Below are positions 4,312-60,671 of a DNA stretch of 64,000 nucleotides, in pieces. This stretch comes from an uncultured Ruminococcus sp. (GTDB lineage Bacteria > Bacillota > Clostridia > Oscillospirales > CAG-272). The notes beneath the pieces were generated by a model. The model was given only the letters and a program-made list of their open reading frames with translations. It was not told the origin of the DNA and searched no databases. The DNA is taken from NCBI GenBank assembly GCA_902778145.1, contig CACYWW010000005.1:65013-129012 (forward strand), in the 5' to 3' direction. A program made the position numbers and the translations under genes. Positions within the stretch are counted from its first letter, which is position 1, and every line of letters begins with the position of its first letter.

Positions 4312-5265
4312 TCATATCATTTCATGCGGGATGAGCTCAACCGTGCCGCCGCTCTCTCTGACCTTGAAGATCGAGACGTGCTCGTATGTTTCGTGCGTCG
4401 CGTTCGGCGTGTGGAACGTCATGTAAAGCGTACCGTCGTGCCCGTAGAACATCATCGAATGACCGCCGTCATAAATGAACTCCGGATTCATTTTATAGCT
4501 GTAGATCTCCCTGCTCTGATGCTTCCACTGACCCGTTATAAGACCTGTTTCCGAATATGATACGCCGACGGCGTACGCGTTTTTCTCGTATCCGGGCATG
4601 AAGTTCGACCACGTCATGATCATCCTTCCGCTGTCCGTGATACCTATGAACGGTCCGTCCGTCACTCCGCGATCGGTCCAGTCAGGTTCATTCGCGAGAA
4701 AGAGCTGCACAGGCTCCGATATGAGATGCGTCAGATCCGGCGAGAGCTTTGCCGCCGCCATCGCGCCGACACCGTCCGGCATACAAGTCCACTCGTGTAC
4801 GAAAACGAGCCAGGGCTGACCTTCCGGATCGACGTAAAGCGTACCATCGATGCAATCCCATCCGCTCGGGGAGACGCAGTAACCGGCGATATCCTCAAAC
4901 GGCCCGAGCGGACTGTCCGCGCGGTAGACAGAAATGCTCCTGTGATTTATCATTTTATTGAATGTTGACGTGAAAATATAGAATTTTCCCATATAATAGT
5001 GGCATTCCGGCGCCCAGAAAAAGTCCTTCACCCCGGGATGATCCGCCGGCTTTTCATATACGAGCAAGGGATCCGACCAGTTTTCAAGATCACGGCTGAC
5101 GAGAGCCTCGATACCGCGCTCATGAGCTGATCTGTAAAGGAAGTAGTCGCCGCCGGCGGGCAGGATGAACGGGTCGCGGCAGTAGAGTTTATCAGACAGC
5201 CTGTTCGGGAACTCTTTTATAAACGACGTATCGATCCCCGGTACGTTCATATTTGATATTTTCAT
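4312..5265 (-). CDS. glycoside hydrolase family 43-like (beta-propeller arabinofuranosidase/xylosidase type)
   Basis: 'RDPFILP', 'FWAPECHYY..GKFYIF', 'IDGTLYVD' and 'VHEW' blades are typical of GH43. No signal peptide. Confidence 0.75.
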   Translation of the reverse strand: MKISNMNVPGIDTSFIKEFPNRLSDKLYCRDPFILPAGGDYFLYRSAHERGIEALVSRDLENWSDPLLVYEKPADHPGVKDFFWAPECHYYMGKFYIFTSTFNKMINHRSISVYRADSPLGPFEDIAGYCVSPSGWDCIDGTLYVDPEGQPWLVFVHEWTCMPDGVGAMAAAKLSPDLTHLISEPVQLFLANEPDWTDRGVTDGPFIGITDSGRMIMTWSNFMPGYEKNAYAVGVSYSETGLITGQWKHQSREIYSYKMNPEFIYDGGHSMMFYGHDGTLYMTFHTPNATHETYEHVSIFKVRESGGTVELIPHEMI

Positions 5266-5365
5266 AACATGCTCCTTTTTTTACTGATTGTATCACACCC
5301 GTTCCCGATTGTCAATCATAAAAACTCAACTTCATGTTAAATACGCTTTCAAGCGGAGGTTCGAT

Positions 5366-6544
5366 ATGGTTTTAGCCGGCATAGACAGGATAGACGAGGA
5401 GGACGTCGCGTCAAAGCTCAGAGGCAAACGCCTCGGAGTCATATCATCGACGTCGGGGCTTTCGTCGGATCTCAGATATCCGATGGACGTACTGAATGAA
5501 AAATACAATACAACGGCGCTTTTTGCGCCGGAGCACGGCCCGCGCGGTGTGGCAGGCCCAGGTGAAAAGATCTCGGGCGGTATCGACCGAACGACGGGGC
5601 TTCCCGTTTTCAGTCTTTTCGAGGACTTCCTCACCTCAGCTGACCCCGATGAAAAGGAGCGCGCGTACGCGCCGGCTGACGAGGCCTTATCCCGGATCGA
5701 CATGATGGTGTTCGATATGCAGGACGCGGGCTCCCGCTATTTCACCTACGTTTCAACACTTTTCTACGTCATGCGCGCCTGCGGCAGACGCGGCGTTCCG
5801 CTCACCGTACTCGACCGCCCGAATCCGCTCGGCGGCAAAGTCGAGGGATGCCTGCCGGACGAAAAAAATCTGTCGTTCATAGGTCTGACCCGCGTTCCGA
5901 TCCGCCACGGTATGACGGTCGGGGAGCTCGCGCGCTTTTACAACGGTGAATACGGCCTCGGCTGTGAGCTGACGGTCGTGACGATGCGCGGCTGGGAACG
6001 TGATATGTACTTTGACGATACCGGGCTTCCGTTTATACGTCCGAGTCCCAATCTTCCGACGATGCAGTCCCTTCTCGCCTATAACGGCACTTGCATGCTC
6101 GCCGGGACGAACGTCTCCGAGGGTCGCGGTACGACGGAGCCGTTCACACTCATAGGAGGCGAATTCATAGATCCCGACGCGCTTTGTCAAAGGCTCAGAT
6201 CGAAGGATCTGCCCGGAGTCAGGTTCAGCCCGGCGTATTTCCGTCCGGAATTTTCAAAGCTCGCTCACAGGACGCTGTACGGCGTTCGCCTTCACATATA
6301 CGATAAAAAAGCGCTTGAACCGGTAAGACTCGGAGTCGTCATGATAGACACGATACGGGAGATGTATCCCGATGATTTCGAGTTCACAAAGCCGAAGACA
6401 GAGGGCGGCAGATACCACATAGATCTTTCCACCGGCAATTCCGATCTGCGTGACGGAGTTCTTGACGCCGACGCCATAATGGAAAAGTGGAACGCCGACA
6501 GCGTCAATTTCTATCCGATATACGAAAAATACAGACTTTATTAA
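5366..6544 (+). CDS. DUF1343 family protein (YbbC/NamZ-like exo-muramidase family)
   Basis: 'LFAPEHG', 'MVFDMQDAGSRYFTY' and 'VLDRPNPLGG' match conserved DUF1343 blocks. Start chosen at ATG 5366 (MVLAGIDRI). Confidence 0.75.
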   Translation: MVLAGIDRIDEEDVASKLRGKRLGVISSTSGLSSDLRYPMDVLNEKYNTTALFAPEHGPRGVAGPGEKISGGIDRTTGLPVFSLFEDFLTSADPDEKERAYAPADEALSRIDMMVFDMQDAGSRYFTYVSTLFYVMRACGRRGVPLTVLDRPNPLGGKVEGCLPDEKNLSFIGLTRVPIRHGMTVGELARFYNGEYGLGCELTVVTMRGWERDMYFDDTGLPFIRPSPNLPTMQSLLAYNGTCMLAGTNVSEGRGTTEPFTLIGGEFIDPDALCQRLRSKDLPGVRFSPAYFRPEFSKLAHRTLYGVRLHIYDKKALEPVRLGVVMIDTIREMYPDDFEFTKPKTEGGRYHIDLSTGNSDLRDGVLDADAIMEKWNADSVNFYPIYEKYRLY

Positions 6545-7792: not shown

Positions 7793-8413
7793 TCAGTTGA
7801 ATTTATTTTCAAGTCTCTCAAGCACCGGCAAAAGCGCGGAATACGCGAGCACGGCGATCAGCGTCAGAAGCAGTCCCTTTCCGAGGTTGAACGGCGTGTT
7901 GAAAATAAGCAGCGCCTGCGGCAGATCCTTTATCCACGGTAAAAGCTTTACGTACGTATCGACGACGCCCTGCACCGAACCGCCGAAATATATGCGAGTG
8001 TACGCGGGATACACGACAAAGAGGTTTACGGGGTAGGCGATGACCGTCATCGCCAAAGCACCCGCGGCGCCGCCCGCAAGAAGTCCGCCCCTGCTCTTAT
8101 GTTTTTTGAATATGAGCGACGCGACGGCGACGTATGAAGCGCCGATCACGAAATTGGCGATCTCACCGACGCCTCCCGTACTTCCCATCGGGATATGGAT
8201 CAGGTTTTTGATCAGGCAGACGAGCACGCCCCAGAGCGGACCGGCGGTTATCCCCGTGAAAAGTCCCGGGAAGTCCGACAGATCGAGCTTGATGTACGGA
8301 GGCATGAACGGCAGCATGATCTCAAACACCGGAAGCATCAGTATGACCGCAATCGCGGACATTATTGCAGTTATAACGAGCTTGTAAAGGATCTTTTTGT
8401 TTTTGCTTTTCAT
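7793..8413 (-). CDS. ribU: ECF-transporter S component, riboflavin-type (RibU-like)
   Basis: About 206 aa with about 6 TM helices, directly downstream of an FMN riboswitch. Start moved to ATG 8413 (MKSKNKK), because the longer ORF would run through the riboswitch terminator. Confidence 0.8.
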   Translation of the reverse strand: MKSKNKKILYKLVITAIMSAIAVILMLPVFEIMLPFMPPYIKLDLSDFPGLFTGITAGPLWGVLVCLIKNLIHIPMGSTGGVGEIANFVIGASYVAVASLIFKKHKSRGGLLAGGAAGALAMTVIAYPVNLFVVYPAYTRIYFGGSVQGVVDTYVKLLPWIKDLPQALLIFNTPFNLGKGLLLTLIAVLAYSALLPVLERLENKFN

Positions 8414-8606
8414 TATAAAACCAAAGCCCCCGATCGCTCGGGGGCTTTTCAAACCTTTCTTACGGCGCGTGTGACGCGCCATTATTTTCTCTCATCCGGA
8501 CTTTACCGTCGGTGCAGGAGTTTCACCTGCTCGGCAGCTTGCGCTGTTAGTGGACTGTACCACCGGTTTGGAATTTCACCTGAGCCGTAAACGGCTCCCC
8601 CGAAAA
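8414..8606 (-). promoter_or_regulatory. FMN riboswitch (RFN element) with terminator-type expression platform
   Basis: The minus strand reads ...TTCGGGGGAGCCG...GGTGAAATTCCAAACCGGTGGTA.AGTCCAC...GCAGGTGAAACTCCTGCACCGACGGTAAAGTCCGGATGAGAG, which is the conserved RFN core. It is followed by hairpin AGCCCCCG/CGGGGGCT (8425-8446) plus a U-rich tract before ribU. Confidence 0.85.
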
Positions 8607-30922: not shown

Positions 30923-32038
30923 ATGTATCACGTAACGTTCAAAGGGCTTGAGAACGTATCGTTCGAATTTTCGCCCGTCGCCTTCACGGTATTCGGAAAG
31001 CCGATATACTGGTACGGCATCGTTATCACCATAGGTATCATCCTCTCCGCGCTTTACGCGTTCTGGCGTGCAAAAAAGCTCGGTATCAAGATCGACGACA
31101 TGTATGATTACGCAATATTCATAGTGATATTCGGCGTCATCGGAGCGCGGCTCTATTACGTTCTGACGAATTTGTCCGATTACCGGACCTTTAAGGACGT
31201 TATAGCCATTTGGAACGGCGGACTTGCGATATACGGCGGCATAATTGCCGGCGTGATAACCGTGATCGTCGTATCAAAGGTAAAGAAGATAAAGGTACTG
31301 CGCGTCCTTGACGCGATTGCGCCGTCCGTGATGATCGGTCAGATCCTCGGCAGATGGGGCAATTACTTCAATCAGGAGGCGTTCGGCTGCAATACGACGC
31401 TTCCGTGGGGCATGAGATCGTACGTCGTCCAGGGCACCGGCATCGGCGAGAACCTTCAGGGTACTGTTGAATACCTCGGTGAATACGTACAGAAAAAATC
31501 GGACGAGATACAGGCGCTCGGCATGAAGATAGATCCGCAGGGCTTCGTCCACCCAACGTTCTTATACGAGGGCATCTGGAACCTTATCGGGTTTATCATA
31601 ATAAATATATTCTATAAAAAGCGCAAATTCGACGGGCAGATGTTTCTCATGTATATCACCTGGTACGGACTCGGACGCGGTTTCATTGAAATGCTGCGTA
31701 CGGATTCGCTTTTCATCCCGGAAACGCATATAAGGATCTCGATGGCGGTCGGCTTCCTCTGCTTTATCGCGGGGACCGCGCTTCTGATCGCGCTTGCCGT
31801 AAGAGCCGGAAAGGATCCCGAGGCTGTTTCGTCCTGTGCGTACTACGACGAAAAAGCCGAGAAAATGAAGGCTGAAGCCGAAGCCAAGGCAAAAGCGGAA
31901 GCAGAAGCCGAAGCTGAAGCAGAAACAGAAACAGAAACGAAAACAGAAACAGAAGCCGAGCCCGAAGCGGAAGCGGAAGAAGAAACCAAGCCCGAAGCCG
32001 AGAAAACACCGGAGGACGATCATGGCAATGATAATTGA
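30923..32038 (+). CDS. lgt: prolipoprotein diacylglyceryl transferase with acidic low-complexity C-terminal tail
   Basis: 'YGIVITIG', 'GARLYYV', 'GGLAIYGG' and 'GRWGNYFNQEAFG' are hallmark Lgt blocks. The last ~70 aa are an (A/E/K/T/P) repeat. Confidence 0.9.
   Translation: MYHVTFKGLENVSFEFSPVAFTVFGKPIYWYGIVITIGIILSALYAFWRAKKLGIKIDDMYDYAIFIVIFGVIGARLYYVLTNLSDYRTFKDVIAIWNGGLAIYGGIIAGVITVIVVSKVKKIKVLRVLDAIAPSVMIGQILGRWGNYFNQEAFGCNTTLPWGMRSYVVQGTGIGENLQGTVEYLGEYVQKKSDEIQALGMKIDPQGFVHPTFLYEGIWNLIGFIIINIFYKKRKFDGQMFLMYITWYGLGRGFIEMLRTDSLFIPETHIRISMAVGFLCFIAGTALLIALAVRAGKDPEAVSSCAYYDEKAEKMKAEAEAKAKAEAEAEAEAETETETKTETEAEPEAEAEEETKPEAEKTPEDDHGNDN
31858..31995 (+). repeat. GAA/GCC-rich hexanucleotide-type low-complexity repeat encoding the Lgt tail
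   Basis: gaagccgaagccaaggcaaaagcggaagcagaagccgaagctgaagcagaaacagaaacagaaacgaaaacagaaacagaagccgag... Confidence 0.8.
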
Positions 32039-42813: not shown

Positions 42814-43338
42814 ATGGGATTTTTATCTAAACTGTTCGGCGGCAGCAAAGACGCCGAAAAAACAGCTCTCGATCTGCTCAAGAATCTTATGAATTCCGAT
42901 AAAAAGGAAGATCGTAAAGAGGAAAAGAAGCAGGAAGAAGCGCCCGCGCCGGCGCAGGACCCGAGCCCCGTTTATGACAGCACCGATTCCGGCCCCTCCG
43001 GTTTTTCATGGGGTGAAAGAATGCCCGCGGAAGAAAACCAGTACAACTACAACGGCACCTACAGAGAATACTTTGAGCATATCTTCCGCGACGACTTTTC
43101 ACAGTATCAGCTCAAAGCCGAGCCTCAGCCCGGCGGCAAGCGCATAGTGTACACGCTGTTCGACCTCGGGCGTACCGTTTGCGTCGTGGAGGTCATGCAT
43201 CAGGGCAGCGACTCAAAGAAGCTGCGCGAGAAGTGCCGGAGAAACGGTATAGGCTACTGCCGTTTCTACCACAACCATGACGGCTGGTGGAACACGCGTG
43301 AATACGTAGTCACCCGTATCAAAGAAGCCATAGGCTGA
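42814..43338 (+). CDS. hypothetical protein: disordered K/E/P-rich N-half, compact C-terminal domain (weak PD-(D/E)xK-like pattern)
   Basis: RBS AAGGAGA. The C-terminus is 'YFEHIF..F..Y.L....IVYTLFDLGRTVCVVEVMHQ.....KLREKCRRNGIGYCRFY'. Confidence 0.6.
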   Translation: MGFLSKLFGGSKDAEKTALDLLKNLMNSDKKEDRKEEKKQEEAPAPAQDPSPVYDSTDSGPSGFSWGERMPAEENQYNYNGTYREYFEHIFRDDFSQYQLKAEPQPGGKRIVYTLFDLGRTVCVVEVMHQGSDSKKLREKCRRNGIGYCRFYHNHDGWWNTREYVVTRIKEAIG

Positions 43339-43347
43339 CAAAACACA

Positions 43348-43489
43348 GAAAAAAGCGGAAAGAGAACGCCACGTGCGCCTGCGGAGGACCAGGCACGGAC
43401 GATAACGGAGCTTCGCAGGCAGCCCGTCCGTGTACGGCCCGGTACATCCCGTAATTATACGGGCTTTAAAGTCTTCTCTTTCCGTTTTT
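43348..43489 (+). other. inverted-repeat-bracketed structured spacer immediately upstream of the RT (candidate ncRNA)
   Basis: gAAAAAAGCGGAAAGAGAA (43348-43366) pairs with TTCTCTTTCCGTTTTT (43474-43489), 16 pairs with one bulge. The 107 nt between are GC-rich and contain hairpins, for example cccgta-atta-tacggg (43448-43463) and cacggacg/cgtccgtg (43394-43401 / 43425-43432). Confidence 0.35.
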
Positions 43490-43501
43490 ATATTTTTGAA
43501 A

Positions 43502-44689
43502 ATGTCACTGCTCGACAAGCTGAGAGATCCCGCAGTATGGGAAAAATTCTACGAATATAAATCCGGGCTCTCATGCCCCGGATCATACCTGAAGGAGCTG
43601 CGCGGCTTCATCGACCGGGCGGGTTATCTGCCCGTCTGCGATACGATCGATTCGGGCGGCGTTTTTCCGCTGCCGAAAAAAAGCGTTATAAGCAAGGTCG
43701 GCTCCGAAAAAAAGCGCACGGTCTACACGTACCCGGACGACGAGAACACGACCCTGAAGCTGCTCACGCATCTTCTCCTCCGCAGGTACGACGGACTTTT
43801 CTCCCCCGGCCTCTACTCCTTCCGTCCCGGAAGGACGGCAAAGGACGCGGTGCGGCGGCTGAGAAGGATTTCCCGCGGGATGTACAGCTATAAGACCGAC
43901 ATACACGATTATTTCAACTCAATACCGCTTGACAGATTTATCCCGCTTCTCCGCTCGGTGACCGGGGAAGACCCGCGTTTGTTCTCTTTCCTCTCTTCTC
44001 TTTTGCTTGAAAGCCGCGTGACAGACCGCGGCAGGGTGACGGAGGAACAAAAGGGGATCATGGCGGGAACGCCGCTGTCCGCGTTTTACGCGAATCTTTA
44101 CCTTTCGGAGCTCGACCGTCATTTCGACGGCGTACCGTACGCGCGGTATTCAGACGACATCATAGTCTTCGCAAAGGACAGGAACGAGCTTGACGGACAC
44201 GTTGAATACATAAATTCCGCGCTCTCCCGCGCGGGTCTCACGGTCAACCCGAAAAAGGAGACGTACGGGGAGCCGGACGAGGGCTTCGTTTTTCTCGGCT
44301 TCATCTGCTCGGACGGCGTGACGGACATCGCGCCGGTGACCGTTGTCAAGCTGAAGAAGAAAATGCGGCGCAAGGCGCGTTCGCTCGTCCGCTGGTACAA
44401 CAGGACGGACTCCGATCCGGAGCGAGCCGCCGCCGCTTTCATCCGTGTCTTCAACCGCAAGCTCCTCGACGACCCGCAGGGCAACGAGCTCTCCTGGAGC
44501 CGCTGGTTCTTCTCAGTCATAAACACGGACAAAAGCCTGCACGAGATCGACCTTTACGCTCAGGACTGTATACGGTACATAATATCCGGTTCGCGTAAAA
44601 AAACGCGCTTCCGTGTGACGTACGACGACATGAAGGCGCTTGGGTACAGAAGCCTTGTGCACGAATACCATAAGGATTCAAAATCATGA
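43502..44689 (+). CDS. stand-alone reverse transcriptase (RNA-directed DNA polymerase), class unresolved
   Basis: RT motifs are 'YSFRPGRTAKDA', 'TDIHDYFNSIP', 'GIMAGTPLSAFYANLYL', catalytic 'YSDDIIVFA', 'GLTVNPKKE' and 'GFVFLGF', followed by a ~130-aa basic thumb-like tail. The start is uncertain: ATG 43502 has no obvious SD, and GTG 43430 is the alternative. Confidence 0.85.
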   Translation: MSLLDKLRDPAVWEKFYEYKSGLSCPGSYLKELRGFIDRAGYLPVCDTIDSGGVFPLPKKSVISKVGSEKKRTVYTYPDDENTTLKLLTHLLLRRYDGLFSPGLYSFRPGRTAKDAVRRLRRISRGMYSYKTDIHDYFNSIPLDRFIPLLRSVTGEDPRLFSFLSSLLLESRVTDRGRVTEEQKGIMAGTPLSAFYANLYLSELDRHFDGVPYARYSDDIIVFAKDRNELDGHVEYINSALSRAGLTVNPKKETYGEPDEGFVFLGFICSDGVTDIAPVTVVKLKKKMRRKARSLVRWYNRTDSDPERAAAAFIRVFNRKLLDDPQGNELSWSRWFFSVINTDKSLHEIDLYAQDCIRYIISGSRKKTRFRVTYDDMKALGYRSLVHEYHKDSKS

Positions 44690-44729
44690 ATGATGAATTC
44701 AGAATTCTTCATTAATGTCCGGTATTGTG

Positions 44730-44758
44730 TTGACAAAACGCGTTTTCGGGGTTATAAT
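44730..44758 (+). promoter_or_regulatory. promoter of the alpha/beta hydrolase gene
   Basis: TTGACA, 17 nt, TATAAT (perfect consensus). Confidence 0.65.
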
Positions 44759-44783
44759 TATAAAAAATCAGCGGGAGAAAGTC

Positions 44784-45638
44784 ATGAGATCATTTGACGG
44801 AAAAGAGCTTTACACATACCTTTGGGACGACGTGAAGGATCCGGTCGGAGTCGTACAGCTCTGCCACGGCATGTGCGAACATCTGGGCAGATACGACGGC
44901 TTTGCGCGGTTCCTCAATAAAAACGGATACATAGTTTTCGGTGACGACCACAGAAGCTACGGCAAAACGGACAACAACTCGGGCTACTGCGACGGCGAAT
45001 ACGTGGGCGACACGGTCAGAGACCTCGTATTCATAAACGAATACCTCAAGAAGGAATACGGTCTTCCTATCACGTTCATAGGCCACAGCTACGGAAGCGT
45101 ACTGGGTCAGAGGTTCGTACAGCTCAACACGGGGATAAAGAACGCCGTGCTTACCGGAACGCTGACGATACCGCACGCGCTCTGCCGTCTCGGACAGGGC
45201 GTCATGGCGCCGGTAAAGGCGATAGCGCCGCATGCGGGCGTCGCGCTTTCGAGCGCGAAATTCCCGGACGAGGACGAGGCACCGGATTCGTTCCTCACAA
45301 AGGATACGGAGATCAGACGTCAGTACGCCGAGGATCCGCTCTGCGGCGGAAAATCGTCGATGAGATATTACTACGGCTTTATAAAGCTGATGGGTGACGC
45401 GACAAAAAAGGCGAACGTCAAGGCGATCCCGGACAGTCTTCCGATAGGGATATTCAGCGGCAAAGACGACGGTATCGGGCATTTCGGCAAGGACCCGCGA
45501 AAGGTGTATGAGACGTACAAAAAGTACGGCAAGAACGCGTATCTGAAGCTCTACGAAAACGACCGGCACGAGATCCTGAACGAGACTGACAAGGATCGCG
45601 TGATGAACGACATCCTCGAATTCATAAAAAACAACTGA
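44784..45638 (+). CDS. alpha/beta hydrolase (lysophospholipase / monoacylglycerol-lipase-like)
   Basis: 'CHGMCEH' oxyanion region, nucleophile elbow 'GHSYGS', and C-terminal 'DRHEILNE' His. Start at ATG 44784 with GGGAGAAAG upstream. Confidence 0.8.
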   Translation: MRSFDGKELYTYLWDDVKDPVGVVQLCHGMCEHLGRYDGFARFLNKNGYIVFGDDHRSYGKTDNNSGYCDGEYVGDTVRDLVFINEYLKKEYGLPITFIGHSYGSVLGQRFVQLNTGIKNAVLTGTLTIPHALCRLGQGVMAPVKAIAPHAGVALSSAKFPDEDEAPDSFLTKDTEIRRQYAEDPLCGGKSSMRYYYGFIKLMGDATKKANVKAIPDSLPIGIFSGKDDGIGHFGKDPRKVYETYKKYGKNAYLKLYENDRHEILNETDKDRVMNDILEFIKNN

Positions 45639-46012
45639 AAAAAACGCGGTCTTGCGGTGTACTTCGTAAGGAAGTACACCGCAGCTAAATTCGCTTCGCG
45701 AGCTAAATTATGCTTCGCATAGCTAAATTCGCCTTGCGGCGAGCTAAATTGGGCTTCGCCCAGCTAAATTTGCTTCGCAAGCTAAATTCGGCTTTGCCGA
45801 GCTGAAAAAGGCGAATTTAGGGACAATTTAGCTATCGAACGCAGTGAGATAATTTAGCTGCGAGCAACTGCGAGCAATTTAGCTGTTTTCAAAATCATTC
45901 TTAATATCAAAGCGATTAGAACAAGCTGAAAGAGAATAACCCACTATAACACTTTCAATAATAGAAAGATGTCAGAGTGGGTTTGTTTCTTCCTTACGCA
46001 GCCTCTCCCTTG
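45638..46012 (+). repeat. composite structured repeat element, copy 1 (GNRA hairpin + opposed AGCTAAATT/mini-hairpin arrays + AT-rich tail + terminal hairpin)
   Basis: 12-bp hairpin gcggtgtacttc-GTAA-gaagtacaccgc (45654-45682). Six exact AGCTAAATT at 45683, 45701, 45721, 45742, 45762 and 45780. Three exact AATTTAGCT at 45825, 45851 and 45876. Terminal hairpin aacccact.../...agtgggtt plus a T-rich tract (45938-45993). Confidence 0.9.
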
Positions 46013-46022
46013 CCGCGTTTTT

Positions 46023-47699
<1,677 letters not shown>

Positions 47700-60183: not shown

Positions 60184-60604
60184 AAAAAACGCCGACTTGC
60201 GGTGTACTTCGTAAGGAAGTACACCGCAGCTAAATTCGCTTCGCGAGCTAAATTATGCTTCGCATAGCTAAATTCGCTCCGCGAGCTGAATTCGGCTTCG
60301 CCGAGCTTGCAGGCAAATTTAATTTAGCTGAAGCCGTGAGGCTTCAATTTAGCTATACGCCGACAGGCGTATAATTTAGCTGCCGCAAAGCGGCAATTTA
60401 GCTGCCGCAAAGCGGCAATTTAGCTATCGATGGCAGTGAGATAATTTAGCTGCGAGCGACTGCGAGCAATTTAGCTGTTTTCAAATTCATTCTTAATATC
60501 AAAGCGGTTAGAACAAGCTGAAAGAAAATAACCCACTATGACACTTTCTCTATTCGAAAGATGTCAAAGTGGGTTTGTTTCTTCTTTACGTCGCCTCTCC
60601 CTTC
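60184..60604 (+). repeat. composite structured repeat element, copy 2
   Basis: Same 12-bp GNRA hairpin (60199-60227). Three exact and one 1-mismatch AGCTAAATT (60228, 60246, 60266, 60284). Seven exact AATTTAGCT (60321, 60346, 60373, 60395, 60417, 60443, 60468). Same AT-rich tail and terminal hairpin plus T-tract (60530-60588). Confidence 0.9.
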
Positions 60605-60671
60605 CGGCAAATTTTTGCGCCGGACGTATGATAAATATTTTCAATACGGGCAAGTTTTTTTTGAAATACTA

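Follow-up and report, generated by a model that had tools for sequence, protein, structure and literature searches.

The stretch considered here, a window of 64,000 nt from an uncultured Ruminococcus sp. (Bacillota; Clostridia; Oscillospirales; CAG-272), comprises positions 65,013 to 129,012 of contig CACYWW010000005.1 in assembly GCA_902778145.1. Between two convergent genes, which encode an alpha/beta-hydrolase and, on the minus strand, the CTP synthase PyrG, it harbors a non-coding repeat element of 358 nt that is referred to as element A or copy A in the following (Table 1). The hydrolase open reading frame (ORF) ends with TGA and is followed by an A-run, the pentamer CGCGG, the bases TCTT and the 5' terminal hairpin of the element. 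A second copy of 405 nt, element B, is located between a divergently transcribed dockerin/SH3 protein gene on one side and the rimP-nusA operon on the other. The parts of the element follow a fixed order, i.e. a terminal hairpin, units of the 9-mer AGCTAAATT each joined to a mini-hairpin, a conserved center, inverted units of AATTTAGCT with their spacers, and a 3' module of 127 nt. An original prediction, drawn up from the letters of the window alone, had described copy A as a hairpin followed by two opposed arrays of this 9-mer; the second copy, the position in the loop of a terminator hairpin and the presence/absence polymorphism described below were absent from it.

Within the window, the 9-mer occurs in 19 exact copies, all of which fall into the two clusters. 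With up to one mismatch, 23 sites are found, compared to 11.6 +/- 3.5 in shuffled sequence, and a count of 23 was reached in none of 100 shuffles, which bears out the earlier view of a structured, non-chance element. Likewise, no ORF of at least 40 aa spans the arrays, in agreement with the proposed non-coding nature. The six exact left-arm linkers at 18-21-nt spacing, their self-complementary spacers and the three exact reverse-complement copies were all recovered where they had been placed, and the end of the element had been set essentially correctly. As for the 5' hairpin, the perfect 12-bp stem stands (13 bp with the flanking T/A), but the GNRA tetraloop assigned to it had to be given up because the perfect stem demands the 5-nt loop GTAAG. 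What had been taken for a degenerate center turned out to be the family-conserved motif AGCT-N4-6-GGCGAATTT-AATTTAGCT combined with a 16-nt deletion in the first right-arm unit; the center of canonical copies reads GGCGAATTTAATTTAGCTgtccctatgggacAATTTAGCT, and the previously noted 'aatttaggg' arises because copy A lacks these 16 nt. Copy A carries six left linkers plus a degenerate one (AGCTGAAAA); on the right, it has three linkers and the remnant AATTTAGgg. The two special spacers of its right arm are atcgaacgcagtgagat, a hairpin with tandem G.A/A.G and a GCA loop, and gcgagcaactgcgagc. Copy B and 27 metagenome loci share the 5' hairpin of copy A with 100% identity. The tips of the element, GCGGTGTAC... 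and ...CCTCTCCC, are not inverted copies of each other, and its sole inverted repeat is the 10-nt subterminal pair CGTAAGGAAG/CTTCCTTACG, 11-13 nt from the tips. Following ...CCTCTCCC, the 3' module closes with TT, the second copy of a 2-nt direct repeat. The flanks of element A form a perfect 11-nt inverted repeat (45639-45649 with 46013-46023).

Table 1. Coordinates of elements A and B, their target sites, other features of the window, and related features at other loci (locus handles start with L).
Feature	Position or locus	Strand	Remark
Alpha/beta-hydrolase ORF	44715-45638	+	Pfam Hydrolase_4
Left half of split target terminator, site A: A-tract, stem CGCGG, loop bases TCTT	45639-45653	+	
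First copy of 2-nt direct repeat, site A: TT	45652-45653	+	
Element A	45654-46011	+	358 nt, non-coding
5' terminal hairpin of element A: GCGGTGTACTTC-GTAAG-GAAGTACACCGC	45654-45682	+	
Subterminal repeat CGTAAGGAAG inside 5' hairpin	45665-45674	+	
Left arm of element A: six AGCTAAATT linkers, each followed by a 9-12-nt mini-hairpin with loop TTC, TTG(C) or TTT	45683-45799	+	exact linker starts 45683, 45701, 45721, 45742, 45762, 45780 (sixth ends 45788)
Center of element A: AGCTgaaaaaGGCGAATTT, then remnant aGGGAC of first right-arm unit, 16 nt deleted	45800-45824	+	
Right arm of element A: three AATTTAGCT linkers and two conserved special spacers	45825-45884	+	exact linker starts 45825, 45851, 45876
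3' module of element A, 127 nt	45885-46011	+	kept in 20 unique variants
Imperfect hairpin in 3' module of element A	45938-45983	+	
Subterminal repeat CTTCCTTACG in 3' module of element A	45989-45998	+	
Second copy of 2-nt direct repeat, site A: TT	46010-46011	+	
Right half of split target terminator, site A: loop base g, stem CCGCG, T-tract	46012-46023	+	overlaps pyrG stop codon
pyrG (CTP synthase)	46023-47633	-	
Left half of target hairpin, site B: A-tract, stem GCCG, loop ACTT	60184-60198	+	
Element B	60199-60603	+	405 nt
5' hairpin of element B	60199-60227	+	identical to copy A
Left arm of element B: three exact linkers, one near (AGCTGAATT), one degenerate (AGCTTGCAG)	60228-60312	+	
Right arm of element B: seven exact AATTTAGCT; spacer loops GTGA, GACA, AAA	60321-60476	+	
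Exact tandem duplication of AATTTAGCTgccgcaaagcggc in element B	60373-60425		
3' module of element B	60477-60603	+	91% identity to copy A module (127 nt)
Right half of target hairpin, site B: c, stem CGGC, then aaattttt	60604-60616	+	
ORF of reverse-transcriptase module	42814-43338	+	PADLOC RTasCOG2852, E = 1.5e-59
RT-5 RNA	43373-43477	+	Rfam RF03026, 87.7 bits
Reverse transcriptase	43430-44689	+	RT_UG26, E = 9e-164
FMN riboswitch	8480-8596	-	RF00050, 80.8 bits; upstream of ORF 7793-8482 (-)
(GAAGCA) x 18.5 tandem repeat	31874-31984		77% match; inside ORF 30923-32038
Gut-1 arrays	L074: 1439-1526; 2057-2137		
Arrays with other linkers	L074; flanks in L034, L037, L049, L111, L012, L152, L157		often adjoin AGCTAAATT elements or terminators
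GCATCTAAAYYATTC(GG) right ends	L047, L054, L049, L031, L040, L100, L186, L177		
Nested palindromic element	L072 ~2720-2790; L088 ~2330-2390; L063 ~5040-5100, ~5330-5390; L101 ~2370-2440	L088: -	

Sister strains were found via contigs that encode exactly the same hydrolase (site A) or exactly the same RimP (site B), and their flanks are nearly identical to the window at both sites. Empty alleles of site A occur in two types, namely tgaAAAAAAACGCGGttcggCCGCGTTTTTTcat with the loop ttcgg in L119, L122 and L126, and ...AAAAAACGCGGtcttgCCGCGTTTTTT / ...CGCGGtcttgCCGCG... in L124 and L125. The filled site of the window reads CGCGGtctt, followed by the element, GCGGTG...CCTCTCCCTT, and then gCCGCG, and a further filled allele with a different array variant is present in L121. 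Site B is empty in all ten other strains with identical RimP, where aaaaaacGCCGaCTT (in longer form aaaaaacGCCGactt) directly joins cCGGCaaattttt; the 405-nt insert of the window falls exactly at this junction. The hairpins of the empty sites are CGCGGtcttgCCGCG and GCCGacttcCGGC, and they correspond to a predicted intrinsic terminator in the site A alleles and to a predicted terminator-like hairpin on the minus strand in the site B allele. These precise empty sites in strains with identical flanking proteins show that the element was gained or lost very recently.

For a broader view of the target, 19 distinct sites with both flanks were assembled from a metagenome scan with the 5' hairpin and from genome loci. 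An A-run of at least four on the left and a T-run of at least four on the right are present at all 19, and in 13 of them the flanks pair over at least 8 consecutive Watson-Crick bp across the insert, with 2-5 loop bases left. The stems differ at every site (CGCGG, GCCG, GAGCC, CTTCC, GGGCTC, CACC, GGCGAT, GGACCGC and others), and hence recognition does not depend on stem sequence. The target is thereby shown to be the loop of a small GC-rich hairpin between an A-tract and a T-tract, i.e. a bidirectional intrinsic terminator. At 18 of the 19 sites, left flank and element terminate in the same 2 nt (TT, TC, TA, TG or GC), with L141 as the exception (TT vs GC). The left-flank ends vary (CTT, CTC, TTT, GTT, ATA, TTG, CGC), and the third-last base of the element is C in 17 of 19 cases, independent of the flank. 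Judged by these junctions, the 2-nt match is the signature of a target duplication or crossover core, with the element proper ending ...CCTCTCCC.

Two observations concern individual insertion sites. In L158 (minus strand), the left flank and the 3' end of the element share ACCTCCCCGTC as an 11-nt direct repeat; here, the 3' end deviates from the consensus CCTCTCCCTC and matches the flank instead, which hints at homology-assisted target choice or at conversion of the junction. Moreover, the loop of one array mini-hairpin is occupied at several loci by a palindromic element of a different kind (GGGGAACCCC...GGGGAACCCC type, about 45-55 nt; Table 1). Hence, hairpin loops in such genomes receive more than one kind of small insert.

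The most probable interpretation, which we consider likely, is that elements A and B are copies of a non-coding, multi-copy, non-autonomous mobile element that inserts into the loops of terminator hairpins by means of an enzyme supplied in trans. This recombinase or transposase would recognize hairpin-shaped DNA, either extruded or single-stranded, rather than a sequence, and may exchange strands across a 2-nt stagger or core. A likely intermediate would be a circle with the junction ...CCTCTCCC-NN-GCGGTG.... The subterminal 10-mers and the reiterated 9-mers would be likely enzyme binding or synapsis sites; the 9-mers, typically in convergent 4+4 arrangement, may alternatively be repeated sites for a partner protein or the rungs of a ladder that joins both ends. 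In the transcript, the two halves of the terminator stem could pair again around the insert owing to the fold, which would render insertion little harmful and terminator loops safe havens. Finally, unequal recombination or slippage at the identical 9-mers could lead to the gain and loss of units.

The window element is one member of an extensive family of rumen and gut Clostridia that has hardly been described. When GTDB contigs with one genome per species were searched for three AGCTAAATT separated by gaps of 7-22 nt, more than 118 stretches, as a lower bound, were matched, nearly all of them in metagenome-assembled genomes (MAGs) of rumen or gut Clostridia; among the matches listed, the hosts are Oscillospiraceae, Ruminococcus, Acutalibacteraceae and relatives. 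The few matches in other phyla are plain tandem repeats whose spacers are not hairpins. Neither among 72,556 plasmids nor among 50,697 phages did a distant BLAST search with the element give a match, and a pattern scan of IMG/VR returned 12 matches, including three real family members at tRNA-adjacent edges; the others are coding tandem repeats without hairpin spacers and serve as a negative control. Literature searches on the 9-mer yielded only unrelated papers (primers and similar), and those on miniature inverted-repeat transposable elements (MITEs), terminator loops and Ruminococcus as well as on the protein families PF05635/TIGR02436 (see below) yielded nothing on such arrays. The 9-mer is invariant across species, the center motif is found family-wide, and all 127 oriented arrays are convergent, with the AGCTAAATT units first and the AATTTAGCT units second. 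Exactly 4+4 units are present in 26 of the 49 complete clean arrays, and 36 are within one unit of this number. The flanking genes are unrelated from locus to locus, except for one family that encodes a four-helix-bundle protein.

The spacers are constrained as hairpins. Among unique spacers, 76% in the left arm and 70% in the right arm form at least three Watson-Crick pairs from both ends, compared to 2-3% after shuffling. Loops on the AGCTAAATT strand are of the TNC/TNNC type (TTC, TGC, TAC, TTAC and others), and those on the AATTTAGCT strand are GNA/GNNA (GAA, GCA, GTAA, GGA and others) plus AAA; in view of these complementary loop classes, the units of the two arms are true inverted copies of one kind of unit. 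The RNAalifold consensus of 16 cores from a sister class of the window type (see below) is a ladder in which the 9-mers pair 1:8, 2:7, 3:6 and 4:5 with side hairpins. The comb-like helix with protruding hairpins that had been envisaged for copy A is thus recovered both as this consensus and as the minimum-free-energy fold. In the predicted fold of the inserted element, the outer terminator stem closes around it, with AAAAAACGCGG:CCGCGUUUUUU as the outermost helix. Compensatory changes occur in 16 of the 59 consensus pairs, all 16 within hairpins, and the stems would be kept paired either by selection on structure or by intrastrand template correction. A position-specific unit of the right arm combines a hairpin, a purine-rich internal loop and a GNA loop (atcgaacgcagtgagat in the window, atggagcgaagcggaat in the sister class), and its inner pairs covary (AC/GT, AT/AT, GC/GC). 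Across the family, right-arm mismatches are purine-purine in 81 vs pyrimidine-pyrimidine in 3 cases, and G.T in 15 vs A.C in 5, while left-arm stems are essentially all Watson-Crick. This bias suggests that folding of the right arm takes place on the top (+) strand, be it in RNA or in single-stranded DNA. Folding z-scores range from -7.6 to -8.9, and both strands fold equally well.

Copies A and B agree in the 5' hairpin and in the first two units, which are identical, and differ in the middle arrays. Canonical window-type copies (L143, L152, L161 and others) contain the four left units cgccttgcggcg, gggcttcgccc, tgcttcgca and cggctttgccg, and the right units gtccctatgggac, atcgaacgcagtgagat and gcgagcgactgcgagc. 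In the left arm of copy A, two units of the copy B subtype precede the canonical four, which gives it the appearance of an unequal-recombination hybrid. Copy B contains an exact tandem duplication (Table 1), and a two-unit block is duplicated in the site A allele L121. As the array differs by whole units both between copies and between alleles of one site, the simplest reading would be that such units are gained, lost and swapped via the identical 9-mers. Contigs often end inside the element; such ends, as well as mixed flanks, are attributable to its nature as a multi-copy repeat, via recombination or assembly chimeras. One example is L147, which shares the left flank and the element with L160/L103, followed by unrelated right flanks, due to either recombination or chimeric metagenome assembly. 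In L154 (minus strand, ~148-195), a lone 29-nt 5' hairpin, GCGGTGTACTTCGTAAGGAAGTACACCGC, is located between the terminator-stem halves GACCCGGTC and GACCGGGT. This solo hairpin could be a deletion footprint or a separable module.

Clustering of all ORFs within 2.5 kb of oriented arrays revealed one recurrent neighbor family, a protein of 114-124 aa at nine loci that belongs to PF05635 (23S rRNA intervening sequence protein) and TIGR02436 (four helix bundle protein). Its nearest solved structures, 2RLD and 2GSC, are both uncharacterized. In most of the nine loci, which represent the sister class, the gene starts 8-26 nt past the last AATTTAGCT on the same strand (~205 nt in L047), and tblastn places it within ~210 nt of the array in 12 loci. 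A search starting from the protein gave thousands of homologs, of which the best 120 clusters all share at least 88% identity and are mostly located on contigs below 2 kb. Two loci reached from this side have unrelated contexts (glnA/acetyltransferase and EF-G/glycerate kinase), and in both a 4+4 array lies directly upstream of the gene, with a predicted extended -10 promoter just before the first hairpin. Based on this arrangement and the predicted promoters, the sister-class array is very probably the promoter-proximal 5' leader of the four-helix-bundle gene, whose product would be the best candidate for the cognate binding partner of the array. The motif GCATCTAAAYYATTC directly follows the array if the gene is absent and follows the gene if it is present, and hence the gene has the appearance of cargo placed after the array and before a right-end motif.

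In the form GCATCTAAAYYATTC(GG), this motif bounds the sister-class elements (Table 1), and CCA(G/A)AAAA-hairpin-TTTT often comes next. In L054 and L049, the motif flanks the array on either side as a directly repeated sequence. It resembles att-like or tRNA-3'-end-like boundaries. Many sister-class elements directly follow the terminator of a tRNA or tmRNA gene. The 3' module of the window type was also considered as a relic of the four-helix-bundle gene, which was discarded since tblastn gave no similarity.

Several findings weigh against the interpretation of elements A and B as mobile DNA, or against parts of it. No recurrent enzyme gene was found within 2.5 kb of the arrays, where no transposase or recombinase was identified, and in the sampled DNA, a copy with the ends of the element that also carries an ORF, looked for as 5' hairpin and 3' tail separated by more than 450 nt, was not found; apparent long-spaced end pairs are contig ends, save for the solo hairpin in L154. 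Insertion is not formally separable from precise deletion, and neither a circle junction nor an excision product was seen. At 6 of the 19 sites the flanks are unpaired, which could reflect recombination between copies or chimeric assembly. Relative to GC skew, window-type copies are unbiased (15:12), and lagging-strand single-strand transposition is therefore unsupported; the bias of the whole family relative to GC skew or coding strand (59:30) is probably caused by the sister class being co-directional with neighboring tRNA and other genes. Since the 9-mers are invariant, pairing between the arms has no support from covariation, nor is it contradicted by it. The variants AGCTGAATT/AATTCAGCT (L145, L158, L146) were considered as arm-to-arm covariation and rejected, as they do not occupy mutually pairing nested positions, and the ladder is therefore only a thermodynamic prediction. 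No promoter is predicted inside copy A or B, the 64-kb window contains no four-helix-bundle gene, and sister-class elements with this gene adjoin complete hairpins instead of residing inside loops. Like MITEs, the elements are short (below 600 bp; 358 and 405 nt), non-coding and multi-copy (two in the 64-kb window, 27 loci in metagenomes and many in MAGs), and they show a 2-nt target repeat and presence/absence polymorphism with precise empty alleles at both sites. However, inverted repeats at the tips, as shared by MITEs with autonomous insertion sequences, are missing, and with merely the 10-nt subterminal pair the element is not a classical MITE.

A functional RNA of the Gut-1 type is a possible, if rather doubtful, alternative. 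The array would then act as a leader, sponge or antitoxin-like partner for, e.g., the four-helix-bundle protein, with dispersal being secondary and copies A and B representing orphan RNA genes or 3'-UTR (untranslated region) modules. This could account for the covarying stems, the low folding z-scores, the strand-specific purine-rich internal loops of the right arm with their excess of G.T over A.C, and the predicted promoters that would drive the sister-class array as a leader; in addition, the left arm aligns end to end with Gut-1, which is classed as a likely RNA (PMC2864571). Yet, the left-arm loops are the complement of GNA/GNRA on the would-be RNA strand, which is unexpected if one strand had been optimized, and the other strand folds equally well. 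The missing promoter predictions in A and B, the freely varying unit number and the absence of copy B from 10/10 sister strains, which renders it dispensable, likewise speak against an RNA gene. A role as RNA leader or sponge is compatible with the strand asymmetry and not exclusive of mobility. A much simpler origin, namely a neutral strain-specific product of replication slippage or local duplication as had been entertained in the original prediction, can practically be dismissed: the whole-unit variation and the tandem duplication in copy B would fit, but more than 100 loci from many species show the same architecture, center motif and special units at specific positions, the terminal modules are conserved, and family breadth, hairpin statistics and compensatory stem changes refute it.

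The element might also derive from a known palindrome-targeting transposon, which appears unlikely. Candidates are IS1111/IS110-like elements, which feature subterminal repeats, a 2-nt core and insertion into repetitive extragenic palindrome (REP) or attC hairpins, or single-strand elements of the IS200/IS605 or RAYT type with subterminal hairpins and insertion 3' of a short motif. The subterminal inverted repeat in combination with repeat-free tips, the 2-nt repeat, the hairpin-forming targets and the precise empty sites are reminiscent of such systems, but a DEDD or HUH transposase gene was not found near any copy. The different target stems at every site disfavor the fixed-sequence targeting of RNA-guided IS110-type elements. 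IS200/IS605 elements leave no duplication, insert at a fixed motif and have end hairpins resembling each other, whereas a 2-nt repeat is found here and the two end hairpins (45654-45682 and 45938-45983) are unrelated; neither the conserved GTAG of REP/RAYT nor an orientation bias relative to GC skew was observed. Far less probable still is an array of double-stranded protein-binding sites for chromosome organization, replication or partition, such as iterons, a centromere, or the nucleoid or gyrase sites of bacterial interspersed mosaic elements (BIMEs). The exact, species-invariant 9-mer in two opposed sets with a common convergent 4+4 symmetry would be in keeping with this possibility. However, the spacing is irregular (18-26 nt) and unphased with the helix, and the spacers are constrained as hairpins and not as sequences. 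Moreover, genomes contain many dispensable copies in terminators and after tRNA or tmRNA genes, in a context of chromosomal housekeeping genes and none beside rep or par, and the plasmid and phage searches were negative.

Other features of the window include a defense-type reverse-transcriptase module (42814-44689, plus strand) just upstream of the hydrolase gene. This reverse transcriptase was considered as a mobilizer of element A and rejected: it is of the UG26 defense type and is found equally beside the empty allele L119, and the module is therefore unlinked to the repeat element. In addition, an FMN riboswitch and a (GAAGCA) tandem repeat were detected (Table 1), the latter presumably being a coding Glu/Ala/Ser-rich low-complexity stretch.

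With the mobile-element interpretation, an abundant unannotated repeat class of rumen and gut Clostridia gains an identity as mobile DNA with defined ends, target and alleles, and so does the orphan Rfam motif Gut-1, which has been without function or context since 2010. As a form of structure-directed integration, the choice of terminator loops by shape and not by sequence would be uncommon and accessible to experiment, and one may ask whether termination or the stability of mRNA 3' ends is altered by such inserts at many genes. The link to PF05635/TIGR02436 suggests a testable route to the nature of intervening sequences (IVS) in 23S rRNA and to the role of their conserved ORF. From a practical perspective, the elements interrupt metagenome assemblies, can exchange flanks from one copy to another and offer strain-level markers.

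Among known systems, REP/BIME clusters and REPINs of Proteobacteria, to which copy A had aptly been likened, are non-autonomous palindromes that occur in many extragenic copies at the ends of genes, where they frequently coincide with terminators or serve as such, and the alternating units of BIMEs can fold into larger hairpins. The present elements share the dispersal as non-autonomous palindromic clusters at gene ends and the opposed orientations. In contrast, their units consist of a 9-mer plus a 7-20-nt hairpin instead of imperfect palindromes of 20-40 nt, a GTAG-type 5' motif is missing, the hosts are Clostridia, and insertion into terminator loops with a 2-nt repeat is documented. No gene for a RAYT (Y1 transposase) was found within 2.5 kb of the arrays, where the four-helix-bundle protein is the sole recurrent neighbor. 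BOX elements of Streptococcus pneumoniae (boxA-boxB(n)-boxC) likewise are modular dispersed repeats with conserved end modules, a variable number of tandem internal subunits and a predicted stable fold. However, the ~20-nt unit of linker and hairpin is arranged here in two opposed sets, sequence similarity is absent, and the target is a terminator loop. Structure-directed insertion with very short duplications or cores is known from IS1397 (REP loops), the IS1111-attC group (attC) and the IS110 family (REPs), and IS1111-type elements have subterminal repeats. Unlike the elements described here, these are autonomous and encode a transposase; here, no gene and no related enzyme were seen, and the target stems vary. 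With its order of promoter, tandem-repeat array and small protein gene, the sister class resembles type III toxin-antitoxin systems (ToxI-like order), but its repeats of ~20 nt contain variable hairpins and an inverted second arm, there is no terminator between array and gene, and the four-helix-bundle protein has no known nuclease activity and no PADLOC match.

The statement that no described RNA class has such a layout has to be revised in view of Gut-1 (RF01706), which consists of tandem hairpins with a constant linker. A search against Rfam, proposed as a check in the original prediction, gave no family at gathering thresholds on the element in the window or in 18 related loci, and detected only true Gut-1 arrays in L074. 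At permissive thresholds, the left arm aligns to the full Gut-1 model (1-77) at 45682-45754 with 33.8 bits (E = 6e-5), below the curated gathering score of 50 bits. All three tandem stems of the model with their CUUCG/UUC-type loops are formed, and its GUGAAAU linkers are replaced by AGCUAAAUU, with which only the AAAU core coincides. According to Weinberg et al. 2010 (PMC2864571), Gut-1 was detected in human-gut sequences alone and was placed among the likely noncoding RNAs. Short GC-rich tandem hairpins, the loop type, a constant A/U-rich linker and the occurrence in gut metagenomes are common to both, whereas the Gut-1 model comprises three hairpins without inverted second arm, terminal modules, mobility or target site. 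One contig (L074) carries two true Gut-1 arrays (52 bits) together with a AGCTAAATT array (31 bits), and similarly built arrays in the flanks of many loci have different linkers (CATGAATTG, TCGATATG, AGTTATAT, TTGAAATG, AAGTGATGTT, CATAACT and the GTGAAAT of true Gut-1; Table 1), which places the window element in a superfamily of linker-hairpin arrays. Gut-1 is the only catalogued member of this superfamily, and the window element is its sibling.

The IVS of 23S rRNA replace the small tetraloop of helix 9, 25 or 45 by an extended stem-loop (PMC4990558). They show a sporadic distribution, long terminal complementarity and a selfish character, and some carry an S23p four-helix-bundle ORF; their origin and function are unclear, and Ralph and McClelland proposed the ORF to be a mobility factor (PMC4990558). 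Both systems comprise self-complementary inserts in hairpin loops, and the sister class possesses a protein of the same family. In contrast to IVS, the copies described here are located in terminator hairpins between protein-coding genes and not in helix 9, 25 or 45, copies A and B lack an ORF, and IVS are not known to hold linker-hairpin arrays; moreover, loop replacement is seen in the window type, while the PF05635 gene occurs only in the sister class, outside loops. The parallel can serve as a lead and does not amount to demonstrated homology. Conceivably, although this is speculative and rather improbable, linker-hairpin arrays including the present family, Gut-1 and their siblings are the cis partners of IVS-type four-helix-bundle proteins in a jointly mobile system that seeks hairpin loops. 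A pentameric protein would bind the linker/hairpin units to assemble or target the element, and rRNA IVS and terminator-loop inserts would be two outcomes of one mechanism. As it stands, the element is new in that it is no member of a curated family, and known in kind as a bacterial non-autonomous repeat that is MITE/REP-like and Gut-1-like, from which it is distinguished by structure-directed insertion into terminator loops, the convergent 4+4 core and the link to IVS-type four-helix-bundle genes.

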